In this document: piece by piece, positions 2,085 to 63,386 of the stretch | Numbering within the stretch: position 1 is the first letter of the stretch | Layout: every line of letters starts with the position of its first letter | Assembly: GCA_963668695.2 (NCBI GenBank) | Contig: CAXXLQ010000004.1 | Location: 1,344,001-1,408,000 of the forward strand | Reading direction: 5' to 3' | Length of the DNA stretch: 64,000 bases | From: Vicinamibacteria bacterium | GTDB lineage: Bacteria > Acidobacteriota > Vicinamibacteria > Marinacidobacterales > Marinacidobacteraceae | Notes under the pieces: model-generated | Database searches by the model: none | What the model saw: the letters and a program-made list of their open reading frames with translations, nothing else | Told to the model about the DNA's origin: nothing | Made by a program: the position numbers and the translations under genes

Positions 2085-2213
2085 GGGACCGCCGGCCAGT
2101 TCTCCCGGTGGGGGCCTCCAGACCGGCATCGCTCCCCGCAGGGGAGCGAAACCGCACCCCGCCGACGAGAAGAATGCTCGGCAATGACCGGGACTGCCGG
2201 CCTCCGGCCGGTA
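2085..2213 (+). repeat. REP-like cluster (GGGANCGCCGNCCTCCGGCCGGCA family); first copy carries an 18-bp insert
   Basis: gggaccgccgg[18-mer]gcctccagaccggca at 2085-2128 and gggactgccggcctccggccggta at 2190-2213. Confidence 0.7.
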
Positions 2214-6337: not shown

Positions 6338-6643
6338 CAGCCTGTGGACAAAGTCACGCGGCATTCCCGAGCCAGAAGAGATGGGGGTCGGGTGCCCCGT
6401 CCCCCGCCTCTTCCGCTCCGGGGTCTCCGCGGTGCTGGCGCCCCGCTCCGGAAGCGACCGGGCGATGCATCCCGGCTGAACCGCCCCCCCACCGGGAGAA
6501 CTGGCGCTTCGCGTCGCTCATCGTTGCGCTTCGGTCGAAATACACTCGGTATTCCTCCCTCGCGGGCCTCGTCAGCCGGCCGCCTCACCGGCCAGTTCTC
6601 CCGGTGGGGGCCTCGGTCCTCACGTCACTCTGTCCACAGGCTG
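6338..6643. mobile_element. MITE-like element copy 1 (one 90-bp-type module, two 18-bp inserts)
   Basis: TIRs cagcctgtggacaaagt / actctgtccacaggctg, flanked by TAG and CTA; body homologous to six other copies. Confidence 0.85.
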
Positions 6644-21727: not shown

Positions 21728-21899
21728 TGCCGACCTGGGGGTCGGCGGTCCAAGCCGTACCCGCGCTCTTCCTCGGTCGGTAGTACGTGGTTTCGCGAGC
21801 CTGCGGCTCGCGGTGCCGGTCTGAACACCGGCGTTCCCAGCCTGCGCGCCACGATCCCGGCCGGAAGGCCCCCACCGGGAGAACTGGCCGGCGGGCCCT
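21728..21899 (-). repeat. REP-like cluster (three copies, one with an 18-bp insert)
   Basis: Reverse-strand copies at ~21728-21752, 21814-21838 and 21857-21899 (insert at 21870-21887). Confidence 0.72.
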
Positions 21900-30305: not shown

Positions 30306-30329
30306 GGGTCCGCCTCCGCGCGGACTCAG

Positions 30330-30439
30330 CAGCCGGTAGTGAAACCCACGCGGCCCAGTTCTCCCGGTGGGGGCTCGAGCGGCGATTCAGCCGGGCGCCT
30401 CCCCGCTCTCGGCGCTCACCCGGGTTCCACCACAGGCTG
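30330..30439. mobile_element. MITE-like element copy 3 (internally deleted, one 18-bp insert)
   Basis: cagccggtagtgaaacccacgcgg...ccaccacaggctg followed by cta (GH20 stop). Confidence 0.8.
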
Positions 30440-32293
30440 CTAGGGAGCGAGAGAACGGGACGCTCTCCGGAGCGCCGTTACCGCGCCCTGAAAGAGCTTC
30501 CGGGCCGTTCCGACGCCTTCTGGCCGATTCGTCCGTAACCACAGGTGGCGGAACCGCCTGGCGAGCTCGAGTTGCCGCTCCGCGAGCGAGGTCAACTCTT
30601 CTGCCAGTCGGCGGTCTTCCGGCGTTCCCCCCCGTGCGGCCTGACGGAGGCGGATGGTGGCGAGCCCGCGTTCGGCGCCGAGCAGCGAGGCGTCCAGTGC
30701 GAATCGCCATTCCGCGCCCGATGGGCCCGAGGGCAGACCGTGCGCATTTGCCTCCTCCGCCAGGCGGTGCAGTTCCTCCAGGGTCTTTTCCAGCGCTTCC
30801 CGGGTAGGAGCGCGGGAGCTCCTCGTGAGCCGGGTTTCAAAGAAGACCGTCTTCAACGGCGAATGATTGAAATGCCGGAACCCCGCGTTGTGGAGCCGTC
30901 CGAGCCGCGCGGCGAAATCACCGGAGAACCCGGACGCATCCCCCGCGACGTGCTCCGAGAACGCGGCGGCGAGTTCGCTCTCGGGCCGGTCCTCGTCGCC
31001 CCAGGCGGCTTGGGCGCCGGCCGCGATCGGGAAGAGTGAGCCGCCAAACAGGTTGAAGTGGCCGCCGTCTCCCCAGTCGGTAACGATGAGCCCCGAAGCC
31101 CCGAAGCGTTTCGCGGCACGCGCGTGTCCCCGGATGTTGGGCAAAGAGGTATCGAATCTCGGGAACAGACTGCTCCAGGAAGAAGTTCCGGCCACCGTCA
31201 GGAAGTCGCGGCCCGCGTCCCGGAAGCGCTCCACCCGGTCGAACTCGTGGTCCGGTTCGTACCACCAGTCGGCGAGCGTGATGTCCGGATCGAGGAGGTC
31301 CAGGGCTTCCGGATGATCCGCGAGCACGTCCGCCCAGATCATCGGGCGCTTCCCGAGGTCGCGCGCCATTCCCGCGACGCGGTTCACGTGTCCCGCGAAT
31401 ACCGCCGCGGGTCCCTCGCGCTCGGCGCGCTCCCGCGAGAGCCCCTTCCCGAGGTCCACCGGTTCGTCGCAGTTGATGTGAGCCCACTGCGAGGCAAAGT
31501 TGGGGAGGTATTCCTCCAGCAGGTCGCGGAGCAGCGGGTAGGTTCCCGCGGCCTCCGGCGAAACGGACCAGAGCCGGTCCGATTCCGCGAGGTGGCGATA
31601 GCGAGCTTTCTCCAGGATCCGCCGGAAATGGCCGAACGTCTGAAGACAGGGGACGAGGTCTACGCCCCAGCGGCGGGCGTAAGCGTCGAGCTCCCGGATT
31701 TCGGGTGCCGAATAGCCCCCCGATCCCGCGCCGATCTCGGGGTGCTTCTCGAACTGGAAGGTGTGCTCGGTGTAGAGCAGGAGTTCGTTGTAGCGGAGGC
31801 GGGCGAGGACTTCGATGAGCCAGCGGATGGTTTCCGGGCGGGGGACCTTCCCCCGGGAGATGTCGAGCAGGAAACCGCGCCGCCGGAGGGCGGGAGCGTC
31901 CTGGATGAGGACGGCCGGAATCCTGCCGTCCGGGCAGGCGAGCTGCGCGAGCGCCTCCGCCCCGTAGCGGAGTCCGGCAGAATCTCCCTGGAGCAGGACG
32001 CCCGCCGCATCCACCCGGAGCTCGAAGCTCTCCGGCGCCGAGTCCCGGCTGGTTTCGGACAGAATGAGGTTTCCGGCGGGCCCTGGCGCCCCTTGCGAAG
32101 CGGCGAGGCGCGCATGAAATCCGGCGCGTTGCCCGAGCCGTTCTGCCAGGAACGCCGCCGCCGCCCCCTCCGCCGGGGACCCGGCGTCAAGAACCAACCG
32201 GCAGCGGCGGTCCAGGCGAAAGGACCCCGGCAGGTGCTCGATCCGGCGCGGCGCGGGCAGCAGCCGCGCGGCAGGATGGTCCGGACGGGTCAT
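30440..32293 (-). CDS. Glycoside hydrolase family 20 (beta-N-acetylhexosaminidase-like)
   Basis: RGFLLDISRGKVP, LYTEHTF, PCLQTFGH, catalytic HINCDE, MIWAD, TDWGDGGH. Confidence 0.88.
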   Translation of the reverse strand: MTRPDHPAARLLPAPRRIEHLPGSFRLDRRCRLVLDAGSPAEGAAAAFLAERLGQRAGFHARLAASQGAPGPAGNLILSETSRDSAPESFELRVDAAGVLLQGDSAGLRYGAEALAQLACPDGRIPAVLIQDAPALRRRGFLLDISRGKVPRPETIRWLIEVLARLRYNELLLYTEHTFQFEKHPEIGAGSGGYSAPEIRELDAYARRWGVDLVPCLQTFGHFRRILEKARYRHLAESDRLWSVSPEAAGTYPLLRDLLEEYLPNFASQWAHINCDEPVDLGKGLSRERAEREGPAAVFAGHVNRVAGMARDLGKRPMIWADVLADHPEALDLLDPDITLADWWYEPDHEFDRVERFRDAGRDFLTVAGTSSWSSLFPRFDTSLPNIRGHARAAKRFGASGLIVTDWGDGGHFNLFGGSLFPIAAGAQAAWGDEDRPESELAAAFSEHVAGDASGFSGDFAARLGRLHNAGFRHFNHSPLKTVFFETRLTRSSRAPTREALEKTLEELHRLAEEANAHGLPSGPSGAEWRFALDASLLGAERGLATIRLRQAARGGTPEDRRLAEELTSLAERQLELARRFRHLWLRTNRPEGVGTARKLFQGAVTALRRASRSLAP

Positions 32294-33759: not shown

Positions 33760-34383
33760 ATAAAGTCACGCGGCATTCCCGAGCCAGAAGAGATGGTGGT
33801 CGGGTGACCCCGCCCCCCGTCCCTTCCGCTCCGGGGTCTCCGCGGTGCTTGGGCCCCGCTCCGGAAGCCCGAGCCAGAAGAGATGGTGGTCGGGTGACCC
33901 CGCCCCCCGTCCCTTCCGCTCCGGGGTCTCCGCGGTGCTTGGGCCCCGCTCCGGAAGCCCGAGCCAGAAGGGATGGTGGTCGGGTGACCCCGCCCCCCGT
34001 CCCTTCCGCTCCGGGGTCTCCGCGGTGCTTGGGCCCCGCTCCGGAAGCCCGAGCCAGAAGGGATGGTGGTCGGGTGACCCCGCCCCCCGTCCCTTCCGCT
34101 CCGGGGTCTCCGCGGTGCTTGGGGCTCCGGAAGCCCGAGCCAGAAGGGATGGTGGTCGGGTGACCCCGCCCCCCGTCCCTTCCGCTCCGGGGTCTCCGCG
34201 GTGCTTGGGCCCCGCTCCGGAAGCGACCGGCGATGCATCCCGGCTGAACCGCTACGCTCGGCGTTCCGATTGGGTCGGAATACACCCGGTATTCCTCCCG
34301 AATCGCGCCTTGTCAGCCGGGCGCCTCACCGCCAGTTCTCCCGGTGGGGGCCTCGGTGCTCACGTCACTTTACCCACAGGCTG
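33750..34383. mobile_element. MITE-like element copy 4 (five 90-bp modules, one 18-bp insert)
   Basis: cagcctgtgaataaagtcacgcgg...cccacaggctg then cta. Confidence 0.85.
33778..34223. repeat. 90-bp tandem repeat x5 (fourth unit 86 bp)
   Basis: gagccagaag recurs at 33781, 33871, 33961, 34051 and 34137; units near identical, no spacers. Confidence 0.97.
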
Positions 34384-45944: not shown

Positions 45945-45967
45945 GAGGCGGTGGCAGCCTACCTGAG

Positions 45968-46217
45968 CAGCCGGTGGACAAAGTCACGCGGCCCAGTTCT
46001 CCGGTGGGGGCTCGAGCGGCGATCCATCCCGGCTGAAACAGTCCGCTTCGCGTCGTTCATCGTTGCGCTTCGGCCGAAATGCGCTCGGGCCAGTTCTCCC
46101 GGTGGGGGCTCCTCCCTCGCGCGCCTTGTCAGCCGGGCCCCCACCGGGAGGACTGGCCCCACCGGGAGAACTGGGCCTCCCCGCTCTCGGCGCTCACGCC
46201 ACTTTGTCCACCGGCTG
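45968..46217. mobile_element. MITE-like element copy 5 (four 18-bp inserts at three sites)
   Basis: cagccggtggacaaagt...actttgtccaccggctg perfect 17-bp TIR; inserts at 45993, 46090, 46139 and 46157. Confidence 0.88.
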
Positions 46218-46266
46218 CACCTGCCGAGCCCGCAATTGCCACTTCCGGACGGATAGAATTCCGGGG

Positions 46267-48371: not shown

Positions 48372-49130
48372 GTGATTCCTCGCGAATCCGGGGTGAGTGC
48401 CTGTTTCCCCGCCTTCAACGACGCCGGGTCCATCGGCTGGGTGGCTCATCGGGCACGCGAGGCCTTGCGGGGTACCGGTCGTGACTTCGAGATTCTGATC
48501 CTGAATGATGGAAGCGCTGACCGGACCGCCGAGGTCCTGGAGGTGCTCAGGGCCGAGATCCCGGAACTCAGGACGCTCCGGCACGCACAAAACCGGGGCT
48601 ACGGAGCCACCCTTCGGGATCTCTTCGCCGCGGCCCGGTTCCCGCTCGTCGCCTACACCGATGGCGATGGGCAGTTCGATCCCTTCGAACTCATCCGCCT
48701 GCTGGATGCTCTGAGTCCGGAAATCCAGTTGGTGAACGGCTACCGGGGGAGCCGCGCGGACGGCATGCTGCGGCGGTTTCTCGGCCCCCGCTTCCATCGG
48801 GTGGTGGCGGGGACCTTCGGGCTTCCGGATCTGCGCGATTGGGACTGCGACTTCCGGCTCTTCCGCCGGGACCTGCGCCTCGACGCTTCCATGACCTTCG
48901 ATGACGGGACCGCGGTGGTGGAATTCCTAGCCACGCTCGGCGATTCTGGTGTCCGCTACGCCGAGGTTGAAGTGAGCCACCGTGAACGCCGGGCGGGCGA
49001 TAGCCAATACTTCCGGCCCCGCTCCGTCGTTTCCGGCCACCGCAACCTCTTCCGGTTGTGGCGCAGGCGGGGATCCCCTCCGATCCGCTGGCGGGCATGG
49101 TTCCGAAGAAGCCGGCGCCGACCCGCTTAA
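48372..49130 (+). CDS. Glycosyltransferase family 2 (DPM synthase-like)
   Basis: FPAFND, NDGSADRT, NRGYG, TDGDGQFD, DWDCDFRL; stop TAA abuts a MITE. Confidence 0.9.
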   Translation: MIPRESGVSACFPAFNDAGSIGWVAHRAREALRGTGRDFEILILNDGSADRTAEVLEVLRAEIPELRTLRHAQNRGYGATLRDLFAAARFPLVAYTDGDGQFDPFELIRLLDALSPEIQLVNGYRGSRADGMLRRFLGPRFHRVVAGTFGLPDLRDWDCDFRLFRRDLRLDASMTFDDGTAVVEFLATLGDSGVRYAEVEVSHRERRAGDSQYFRPRSVVSGHRNLFRLWRRRGSPPIRWRAWFRRSRRRPA

Positions 49131-49327
49131 CAGCCTGTGGTGAAACCCGCGTGAGCGCCGAGAGCGGTGAGGCGCCCGGCTGACAAGGCGCGTGAGGGAG
49201 GAATACCGGGTGTATTTCGACCGAAACGCAACGCAGAGCGCCGCGAAGCGCCAGTTCTCCCGGTGGGGGGGCGGTTCAGCCGGGATGCATCGCCGGTCGA
49301 ACGCCGCGTGGGTTTTGCCACAGGCTG
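49131..49327. mobile_element. MITE-like element copy 6 (one 18-bp insert)
   Basis: cagcctgtggtgaaaccc...gggttttgccacaggctg. Confidence 0.85.
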
Positions 49328-49332
49328 TTTAC

Positions 49333-61925: not shown

Positions 61926-63161
61926 GTGCCCATCCTATGGGGCGCCTGTAGCCCGGCCCCGCCGGCGGCGGAGGAGTCTGTCCAGCCGCCGGCGGAGGAG
62001 TCTGTCCCCCGGACGGCCGATGAGCTCGCCAGCCGCTACGTGCGGCTCGCCTTCGCCCTCCACGAACGCGATCCGCTGTTCCTGGATCTGGTGTTCACGG
62101 ATGGGAGTCCGGAGTCCGCGGGCCTCGAGCTCCCGGAAATCGCCGAAGAGGCCGCGCGCCTTGCCGATAGCGCCCGCGCGATGGCGCGCACCGGGGAAGA
62201 ATTCCGGGTCCTCCGCATCGAAGCGTCGGTGCGCGCGCTGGCCTTCCGCGCCCGGTCGCTGCTCGGGGAACGCCAGCCTGTCGCAGAGGAACTTCGCGTG
62301 GTCTTCGGGCTTTCCTGGGGCGATCCCGAGGCGGATCTCGAGCGTCTTCATTTTCGGGTCGATCGCGCTCTGTCCGGAGTGGCTCCTCTCAAGGTCCGGG
62401 TGCGGCGCCACTACGAGCGCTCCGACGTGCCCGGGGAATCGGCGGAGGTCCGTTTGCGGGAGGCATTCGCCGCCTGTCGCGGACTGGCGCCCACTGAGGC
62501 TGCGGGTGTCGCCCTCGAACCGCTGGGTGTTCGCTGGATGGAACCCGCGGAAGCGCTCAGTCTCCCCACCGGCCCCTCGCCCTTCTATCGATACGCCGGG
62601 GACGGGCGCGGGGCGCTGTGGCTCCCGTTGGGCCTCCCGTTGCGATCTACCGAATTGAACCGTCTCGCCTGTCACGAAGGAGTCCCCGGCCATCATTTGC
62701 AGGCAGTGGTCGCCGATCAGGAATTCCGTGCGACCGGATGGCCGGAACTCGGAATCGTTCCGCTCTACGGTCCCCGGACCGCGGTGTTCGAGGGGCTCGC
62801 GGCAACGCTTGAGGATCTCGCACCCGCCACTCCCGCCGACGAGTCACTCCGCGCTCTGGAGCCTGTCGTGTCGCGCATCCTCGCCGGATACCTGGATGGG
62901 GACCTGAGTCGCCTGGAGGCGTTGCGCGCTCTCGATTTCGAGGCCCTGGTTCCCGACCCTCACGGCCTCCTCGCACACGCCGACCGCTTCGGCGGATACG
63001 CTCTTGTCCGCCCTTCCGTAGATCCCGCGTTCCGCGCCGCCCTGGAGAACCTCATCGATCCACGAATCTCTCCGGACGACCGGCTCTCCAGAATCCTGCG
63101 AGCGATCCGCGAAGCCATGAGTCCGACCGAACTCGTTTGCCTCTTTGCAGCCTGTGGATAA
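61926..63161 (+). CDS. Hypothetical lipoprotein with DUF885-like HExxxxHH metallopeptidase motif
   Basis: Lipobox-like WGAC; ACHEGVPGHHLQ followed by FEGLA; stop supplied by the MITE TIR; true start may be upstream. Confidence 0.7.
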   Translation: MPILWGACSPAPPAAEESVQPPAEESVPRTADELASRYVRLAFALHERDPLFLDLVFTDGSPESAGLELPEIAEEAARLADSARAMARTGEEFRVLRIEASVRALAFRARSLLGERQPVAEELRVVFGLSWGDPEADLERLHFRVDRALSGVAPLKVRVRRHYERSDVPGESAEVRLREAFAACRGLAPTEAAGVALEPLGVRWMEPAEALSLPTGPSPFYRYAGDGRGALWLPLGLPLRSTELNRLACHEGVPGHHLQAVVADQEFRATGWPELGIVPLYGPRTAVFEGLAATLEDLAPATPADESLRALEPVVSRILAGYLDGDLSRLEALRALDFEALVPDPHGLLAHADRFGGYALVRPSVDPAFRAALENLIDPRISPDDRLSRILRAIREAMSPTELVCLFAACG

Positions 63162-63344
63162 AGTGGCGTGAGCGCCGAGGCTGGCGAGGCGCCCGGCTGA
63201 CAAGGCGCGCGAGGGAGGAATACCTGGTGTATTTCGAGCGAAGCGCAACGATGAGCGCCTCACAGAGGCGCGGTTCAGCCGGGATGCATCGCCAGCCGAG
63301 CCCCCACCGGGAGAACTGGGCCGCGTGACTTTGTCCGCAGGCTG
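63148..63344. mobile_element. MITE-like element copy 7 (one 18-bp insert)
   Basis: cagcctgtggataaagt...actttgtccgcaggctg then cta. Confidence 0.85.
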
Positions 63345-63386
63345 CTAACGCCTTCTCTTCATAATTGATCACCGATTGAGGTCTTG

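Follow-up and report, generated by a model that had tools for sequence, protein, structure and literature searches.

An 18-nucleotide micro-insert that has probably entered intergenic hairpins and genes of the Marinacidobacteraceae many times

How can a sequence of only 18 nucleotides come to lie, nearly unchanged, at many different positions inside other repeats? The question is raised by a 64,000-nucleotide stretch of a Vicinamibacteria bacterium of the family Marinacidobacteraceae (GenBank assembly GCA_963668695.2, contig CAXXLQ010000004.1, positions 1,344,001 to 1,408,000 of the forward strand; the whole stretch is referred to as the window), in which a preliminary description made from the letters alone recognized twelve copies of an 18-mer, CCAGTTCTCCCGGTGGGG (here X), within miniature inverted-repeat transposable elements (MITEs) and repetitive extragenic palindromic (REP) hairpins. 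The source genome (G000; a 4.1-Mb assembly, 91.7% complete with 9.3% contamination) was compared with relatives designated by other G numbers. The survey for X took in 24 genomes sampled from its own family and 16 from two sister families, gene families (RVT_1, RAYT, and Ku) were checked in 26 family genomes, including 13 members of the genus other than G000 in the case of RAYT, and synteny was examined between 343 kb of G000 and the matching part of G001 (approximately 95–96% identity), with several closed genomes of the genus at 80–96% identity available for polarizing single events. It is probable, at roughly 0.6, that X is a real, lineage-specific micro-insert with an 18-nt core, usually a 20-nt unit of X plus GC, that has entered unrelated places de novo on many occasions rather than being a module inherited from one ancestral position.

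All twelve window copies proved to lie where the preliminary description had placed them, eleven as full-length matches with two mismatches or fewer (chance expectation 0.03; none of 100 shuffles reached eleven) and the twelfth, at 45993-46009, as a 17-nt copy from which one C is missing. G000 as a whole holds 1,566 copies with at most one mismatch (791 on the plus and 775 on the minus strand), or approximately one per 2.6 kb, and a control search with the reversed pattern returned none on either strand; 1,288 copies are exact, 156 carry a T6C variant referred to as X', and the 5.8-kb contig C2 has no copy. The letters around X are nearly fixed, with G at position -2 in 92% of cases and G (87%) then C (88%) directly after the unit. 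X is non-palindromic, its ends (CCAG.. and ..GGGG) are not complementary and it has no terminal inverted repeats, while a 22-nt segment comprising X and its flanks folds with a free energy of -1.9 kcal/mol (z score +0.63; matched or bettered by 150 of 200 shuffles). Read from the sequence, X contains no stop codon in any of the six frames, and a gain of 18 nt preserves the reading frame. Tandem units at an exact period of 18 form 147 adjacent pairs in G000, and inverted pairs occur at spacings of 49 (143 pairs), 56 (60), and 52 (28).

Within the family, X is present in 20 of the 24 sampled genomes, at anything from none or a single copy up to the 1,566 of G000, and it is absent from all 16 genomes of the two sister families. 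A scan of one genome per species found it almost solely in records titled Candidatus Marinacidobacterium, Vicinamibacteria or Acidobacteria bacterium, with four single hits outside those titles. The 18-mer, its reverse complement and its 16-nt cores appeared in no paper of the literature searched, nor did the name 'Marinacidobacterium', and nothing relevant turned up there on MITEs of sponge-associated acidobacterial symbionts; among Rfam families none reached its gathering score in the window, where the MITE gave only sub-threshold hairpin look-alikes. The preliminary description had itself raised the possibility of an adapter or of a sequence lacking read support. That X is an adapter, assembly or chimera artefact is a negligible prospect, given that the window stretch occurs in 14 runs from seven sponge-metagenome studies and that X is carried by long-read chromosomes as well as by the short-read bins of many records. 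Among contigs from four runs, each from a different study, repeat bins stand at approximately 85–350x single-copy depth in three (labelled X9, X11, and X6), and short-read contigs end at the window MITE (45995 / 46189). Furthermore, X lies in frame in a conserved gene of two genomes at 99% identity.

An alternative of a different kind is that X is a DNA-uptake-type signal, alleles that bear it replacing alleles that do not through preferential uptake and recombination (molecular drive). The equal use of both strands, the density of copies, the conservation across the family with 'dialect' variants, the frequency of inverted pairs and the replacement of orthologous alleles, sometimes together with linked substitutions, would all be consistent with this. 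Uptake sequences are 9–12 nt long, are generated by point mutation and often lie within genes; X, however, arrives as a whole 18-nt block, varies from none or one to 1,566 copies within one family, and is nearly confined to repeats. A crude open reading frame mask spanning 51% of G000 includes only 96 of the 1,566 copies, and all 20 of these that were inspected lay in MITE or REP contexts, so that the even spread through coding DNA considered in the preliminary description as a mark of uptake or protein-binding signals is not what is found. Since this explanation also leaves the creation of new copies unaccounted for, it is decidedly improbable. The statement that no copy lies in a coding sequence was true of the window; it fails for the genome, where one genuine in-gene copy exists at G000:C1:39964.

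The host MITE is 183–250 bp in length with ends TAGCAGGCTGTGG...CCACAGCCTGCTA and is flanked by YTA (CTA/TTA), as in IS5/Harbinger-type elements; no autonomous parent was recognized in G000, where pairs of such ends 0.6–6 kb apart showed no size peak. Most copies of X in G000 occupy few contexts, namely about ten fixed positions in the MITE (junction sites are named here A, B, C, D, E, F, G, H, and J), one position in a REP hairpin (GCCGG^T) and the end of another X, and clustering of their flanks yielded 53 left and 64 right classes in 138 pairs. Assignment of the window copies agrees with the five MITE positions plus REP, in both orientations, that had been discerned by eye: site B is filled three times (30355, 45993, and 63302), A once (46090), C by a tandem pair (46139, a variant, and 46157), E twice (6487 and 49251), the opposite-strand D region twice (6592 and 34332), and REP-type hairpins twice (2096 and 21870). 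Empty sister sites are likewise confirmed, by the window MITEs 49127-49331 (E only filled) and 63143-63348 (B only filled) and by pairs throughout the genome. X is also more conserved than its hosts, as had been claimed: 241 of approximately 258 filled A sites carry the exact 18-mer, whereas only about two-thirds of copies share the commonest 14-mer of the neighboring MITE flank.

Comparison of filled with empty sites reveals a simple junction rule. At site A the empty state reads TAT (181) and the filled state G X GC (241); at B the corresponding states are GT (107+13) and X GC (165+20), and at H they are AT (482) and X GC (3). TT becomes X GC at F, GC becomes X GG at E, and in the REP a single T becomes X GC. 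Sites D and C lie five letters apart and every combination of filled and empty occurs. Where X is nested in X, CCCGG/TG/GGG has become CCCGG X GC GGG, with a letter-for-letter match between locus L040 and its un-nested paralogue L026. The usual event is the placing of a 20-nt cassette, X+GC, in lieu of one to three target letters for a net gain of 18 or 19 nt, and filled/empty pairs at sites A–H, J, REP, nested X, and three genes show no target duplication at any junction; the absence of a palindrome and of inverted ends and the net gain given in the preliminary description are thus borne out by junctions and folding alike. Insertions are often beside CCGG or after GG and in or next to hairpins, CCGG being abutted by one end of the cassette at sites A, D, G, and J and by the other at C and H. 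Because the cassette ends in GGGG+GC and so recreates a usable target, tandems and X within X are predicted; successive tandem units are joined without the GC, which stands only after the final one. At empty A sites the hairpin is intact, and its arms show compensatory differences from one genus to another (GGAATAC..GTATTCC as against AATAG..CTATT); X removes the 3' arm, indicating that the empty state at A is the older one. Simple deletion between two CCCGG repeats was considered as a source of empty A sites and rejected, as its predicted product differs from that observed.

Two further features of the host sequences were recorded. Tandem arrays with a 71-nt unit, consisting of X and 53 nt of the MITE left end, reach four or five units (G000:C1:82285-82515, C1:144111-144341, and C4:196642-196871) and account for 109 adjacent pairs in G000. 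The letters to the left of X at site D vary genome-wide among GCCGG, GCTGG, GTTGG, and GTCGG, and these C-to-T differences in the CCGG might reflect cytosine methylation followed by deamination.

That X enters new places as a unit is settled by three insertions in single-copy genes. An RND-type transporter gene (G000:C1) contains X in G000 and G001, which are 99% identical there, but not in G008, G004, G010, and G014 (six orthologues aligned); the junction, CCCG/CG/CGGG to CCCG/X GC/CGGG, is in frame (PHRENW), and on this alignment X is a derived gain in the G000/G001 ancestor. In coaBC, G010 alone among ten aligned orthologues carries X, with a net gain of 18 nt. In mfd, X is found in G012, a 12-nt remnant occupies the same spot in G010, and eight of ten aligned orthologues have nothing, including that of G007, despite 91% identity to G012 over a 321-nt query stretch. 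In each case six residues are added, to the RND pump, CoaBC, and Mfd, respectively. Such in-gene copies are rare, and two of the three targets have neither CCGG nor an obvious hairpin. No paralogous donor with matching flanks exists for any of the three, and gene conversion therefore cannot explain them. The coaBC loop that bears X in G010 holds an unrelated proline-rich expansion of approximately 36 nt in G000 (G000:C4:2098507-2098917, locus L264), and this loop seems to tolerate insertions.

These genes bear most heavily on the proposal that X is immobile, that is, an ancient and conserved component, serving as a structural site or bound by protein, of mosaic repeats resembling bacterial interspersed mosaic elements (BIMEs) or Neisseria intergenic mosaic elements (NIMEs), with present differences produced by recombination, gene conversion, and deletion. 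Paralogues and orthologues alike do show one pair of alternative alleles at each MITE site, the filled A allele is common to two genera, linked substitutions surround some of the changes (locus 41; see below), and chimeras present in G000, such as B-left/A-right, together with the 71-nt arrays, show recombination at or between X units. However, three in-frame gene insertions lacking a homologous donor come close to refuting an immobile module, and X nested in X, X numbers decoupled from those of the MITE, and a burst of X-free MITEs in G020 also argue against it, making it very improbable.

The decoupling is apparent from counts of a MITE marker and of X, respectively, in individual genomes: 630 and 1,566 in G000, 21 and 259 in G018, 93 and 15 in G010, 52 and 1 in G020, and 0 and 7 in G016. 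Of 21 MITE copies sampled in G020, 20 are X-free and nearly identical, indicating that the MITE moves without X; that X is a binding site for the MITE transposase was ruled out on the same recent multiplication of X-free copies. Most copies in X-poor genomes are in REP (approximately 11 of 15 in G010 and three of eight in G012, from the reading of one alignment).

Turnover was followed at 57 aligned X-bearing loci in G000 and G001, many of which differ by entire MITEs. Ten of these loci contain 17 indels of 18, 19, or 36 nt, and the 13 that were inspected are all X units, or X with one indel, at sites A–E. At locus 50, outgroups G004 and G008 place the filling of site H in the G000/G001 ancestor, and only G004 lacks both units at site C. 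At locus 41, G001 and G004 have site A filled and G000 has it empty, so that parsimony favors restoration of the TAT allele, and site B of G001 is filled amid a cluster of linked substitutions; this pattern suggests that some of the turnover comes from exchange among MITE copies or among strains. Repeated, independent addition to hairpin DNA, as originally proposed, hence holds in that X has entered several places, many of them hairpin-forming, but not as an account of every copy: most of the 1,566 are not independent events, having been carried along as MITEs amplified and exchanged sequence or having arisen by tandem repetition. At locus 12 (G000:C4, approximately 1,301,200) the MITE itself has opposite orientations in G000 and G001 at one orthologous position, either because it was inverted where it lay or because it was inserted there independently in each.

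Direct observation covers the insertion events with their junctions, the polarity of those in three genes, and the independence of X from the MITE, whereas the enzymology is inferred. The preferred mechanism, held tentatively and at well under even odds, is break capture with no element-encoded enzyme. Perfect 20–24-bp stems between X and an inverted X would form in single-stranded MITE DNA, and structure-specific nucleases would cut these stems out, thereby setting constant boundaries, the stem limits being exactly G-X-GC. Ku-dependent end joining would next seal the short duplex, whichever way round, into breaks at further sites prone to form hairpins, a few target letters being lost in the process. 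Consistent with break capture, the cassette meets CCGG with either end, as random orientation at breaks would give, and the stem formed by X and X-reverse is 24 bp long and takes in the flanking G and GC (z score -5.2). Each insertion would recreate a target and, with a partner copy, a new source stem, such that the process could feed itself. It is possible, though somewhat doubtful, that X is in this sense a mobile element that has neither a gene nor an enzyme of its own and amounts to a parasitic oligonucleotide. Once X is inserted, its copy number grows mostly passively, through bursts of the IS5-like MITE, duplication of MITE parts, and exchange among hundreds of MITE copies. Quasi-palindrome correction, or copying of the partner arm by fold-back, was rejected, since the flanks outside A/C pairs are not complementary.

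Several points weigh against X as a repeatedly pasted micro-insert or against break capture as its route. The junctions are not uniform: E reads X GG, a single C reads X GT, site A alters the letter before X, and coaBC and mfd both read A X GG. No enzyme, template, or source of free X fragments was found. Ku was found in all 26 family genomes, X-free ones included, and can therefore be permissive only, explaining nothing by itself. X-poor genomes hold mostly single units in REP hairpins and not inverted pairs, which weakens the case for a hairpin-stem source. Some orthologous differences are better read as conversion tracts, placing the true rate of de novo insertion below that suggested by the indel count, and the sameness of X in different genera may stem from exchange among co-resident symbionts instead of the mechanism of insertion.

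Nearly as likely as break capture, though with odds that remain low, is that a dedicated enzyme (a nuclease of the HUH/RAYT type, a recombinase, or a nuclease-ligase) puts X site-specifically into single-stranded hairpin DNA by GG/CCGG in peel-and-paste style, in which case X would be a non-autonomous mobile element. The constant boundaries of the cassette, the G at -2 in 92% of copies, and the abutting CCGG at sites A, D, G, and J would be expected of such an enzyme, and hairpin targets, no target duplication, and no inverted ends are shared by X with IS200/IS605-type transposition. REP-associated tyrosine transposases (RAYT; PF01797) are one candidate. RAYT-like genes with the HUH motif NHVHVL occur in 12 of the 13 other genus genomes, and X-poor genomes have X mainly at REP GCCGG^T, the same REP that flanks RAYT-like genes at three of four loci. 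However, no RAYT was found in G000, where the RAYT protein of G001 finds no match at E values up to 10, nor in G004, G018, or G019, which hold 776, 259, and 70 copies of X, and the gene is present in X-poor G010 and G012. X itself is without the hairpin that such enzymes recognize, and loci L200–L203 contain no X core, three of the four adjoining REP instead. The two gene targets that lack CCGG or an obvious hairpin, and the occurrence of both cassette orientations beside CCGG, further count against a dedicated enzyme. RAYT as the engine of X was dropped, as its presence over the 26 genomes does not follow X numbers, and the suggestion that X is a RAYT scar is unlikely, given at least 70 copies in each of four genomes in which RAYT was not found. 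At L200, L201, and L202 (G013, G014, and G001), the RAYT-like genes lie within approximately 300 nt of REP GCCGGNCTNNAGNCCGGC.

An excision scar of an IS110-type insertion sequence had also been proposed. The 14 IS110 loci examined have X nearby only at L244, in a REP approximately 60 nt outside the element, and IS110 as the source of a scar or an attachment site was rejected because X is missing from the element ends that were examined. Closed genomes rich in X have more IS110 copies, a comparison confounded by draft assemblies and by the non-independence of kin. The single IS110-family element of G000 (G000:C4:481900-484100, L107) is inserted in a REP, ..ccgaccggaggtc / element / cggcgttccc.., at a point within a letter of the position of X in REPs, and its ends lack X. 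Nicking at CCGG-like sites by a Vsr-type enzyme was dropped because X-free genomes contain Vsr, whereas searches of G000, G001, G004, and G018 did not find it.

The remaining proposal of the preliminary description, RNA-templated addition, would have a reverse transcriptase add X from a fixed RNA template in telomerase-like fashion, with tandems arising through repeated rounds. The exact period of the 147 adjacent pairs and the high uniformity of X are in keeping with this, and X ends in the same GG as the left flank, so that re-alignment would be possible. Between tandem units, however, the GC that follows the last unit is missing, and RVT_1 (PF00078) was not found in G000 (no first-look candidate) and occurs in only three of the 26 family genomes, of which one is X-rich (G001) and two are X-free; addition from an RNA template is accordingly highly unlikely. 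The sole strong reverse-transcriptase match in the genus (G001:C10:20331-20993, L204) lies in an open frame of 823 aa on a small contig that also carries IS110 copies and may be a plasmid or other mobile region.

The nearest precedent by analogy appears to be the small dispersed repeats (SDR4-6; Genome Res 18:1484) of the Nostocaceae. SDR4-6 are said to share a conserved hairpin, and SDR units range from 21 to 27 nt. SDRs were reportedly seen nested in mini-transposons, with no target duplication, by Elhai et al. in 2008. Published accounts describe SDR5 as a 21-nt unit of unknown function inserted precisely between the third and fourth letters of HIP1 (PMC4390886, PMC13756078, PMC5861425), and one of them reports that SDR-like repeats were not found outside the Nostocaceae among HIP1-rich cyanobacteria (PMC5861425). 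SDRs and X are both dispersed units of approximately 20 nt, inserted precisely inside other repeats and with no known enzyme, and the view that no element this small had been described does not stand. X differs in its 18-nt core and 20-nt cassette, just below the SDR range, in lacking a hairpin of its own, in occurring in the Acidobacteriota (Vicinamibacteria) at approximately 1,500 copies per genome, in its in-frame gene insertions, and in the replacement of one to three letters by X+GC.

X is not a REP/REPIN, a MITE, a dRS3-type repeat, or an uptake sequence. REP sequences and REPINs are over-represented extragenic short words whose inverted doublets form long hairpins (PMC3116915). X is likewise largely extragenic, over-represented, and often in inverted doublets, and the REP of the genus hosts it, but X is non-palindromic, does not flank RAYT genes, thrives where RAYT was not found, and enters other elements and genes as a single unit. 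The neisserial dRS3 is described as a repeat of approximately 20 bp present in hundreds of copies that bounds RS segments in dynamic arrays; it is regarded as a site of recombinase action, and a phage recombinase of the IS110 type targets it (PMC1797815). Arrays of X with a 53-nt segment and the more numerous IS110 copies of X-rich closed genomes recall this arrangement. However, dRS3 has a 6-bp inverted repeat with a variable center and X has none, the X + 53-nt arrays are duplications of a MITE end, IS110 sits in REPs with ends free of X, and X displays clean filled and empty sites, including in genes. MITEs are comparable in being non-coding, high in copy number, and non-autonomous, but X has neither inverted ends nor target duplication and is approximately ten times shorter. 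Rickettsia palindromic elements, which are palindromic and 100–150 nt long, can sit in frame in protein-coding genes; X shares the in-frame gene insertion, but it is 18 nt long and non-palindromic.

X is one of the smallest insert-like elements seen in bacteria. To our knowledge, the question of how units of approximately 20 nt multiply when they have no transposase, no inverted ends, and no target duplication dates from the description of the cyanobacterial SDRs; X is a separate case, from another phylum and far more abundant, SDRs being confined to one family. Its simple junction rule, polarizable events, and gene insertions make the question of mechanism tractable, since gains can be counted per branch and matched to gene content. 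X enlarges and reshapes the intergenic hairpins of sponge symbionts, breaks short-read assemblies at every host repeat, and provides a sharp marker for this bacterial family. Were it indeed a parasitic oligonucleotide, it would represent a new way for DNA to be selfish, and a natural system that writes a defined 18-nt tag (six codons, stop-free in six frames) into genomes.

Table 1. Copies of X in the window and the elements that host them (window coordinates).
Feature	Position	Strand	Remark
X in REP-type hairpin, ..ggaccgccgg/X/gcctccagaccggc..	2096..2113	+	
X at MITE site E, gcgaagcg/X/gggcggttcagccgg	6487..6504	-	
X at opposite-strand site of MITE D region, cctcaccgg/X/gcctcgg	6592..6609	+	
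X in REP-like hairpin variant	21870..21887	-	
Short, internally deleted MITE with X at site B (30355-30372)	30327..30444	+	
X at opposite-strand D-region site	34332..34349	+	left part of host MITE carries another ~90-nt insert
Full MITE, inverted ends CAGCCGGTGGACAAAGT...	45966..46219	+	four and a bit X units
X at site B, 17 nt	45993..46009	+	G001 orthologue: no X, ~95-nt other insert instead
X at site A	46090..46107	+	
X' (T6C), inner tandem unit at site C	46139..46156	-	
X, outer tandem unit at site C	46157..46174	-	missing from G001 orthologue
MITE with site E alone filled (X 49251-49268, +)	49127..49331	-	A, B, C, D empty
MITE with site B alone filled (X 63302-63319, -)	63143..63348	-	A, C, D, E empty

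The full MITE of the window folds as a single long hairpin (free energy -81.5 kcal/mol, z score -7.8) in which each X of the left arm pairs with one X of the right arm. A second insert of approximately 90–95 nt (..gatgggggtcgggtg..ccgctccggaagcga..) lies in several MITE copies, either at the B site or in the left part; it is seen in the window at 6380-6470 and 34140-34235, and in G001 (L109) it takes the place of X in the orthologue of the full MITE.

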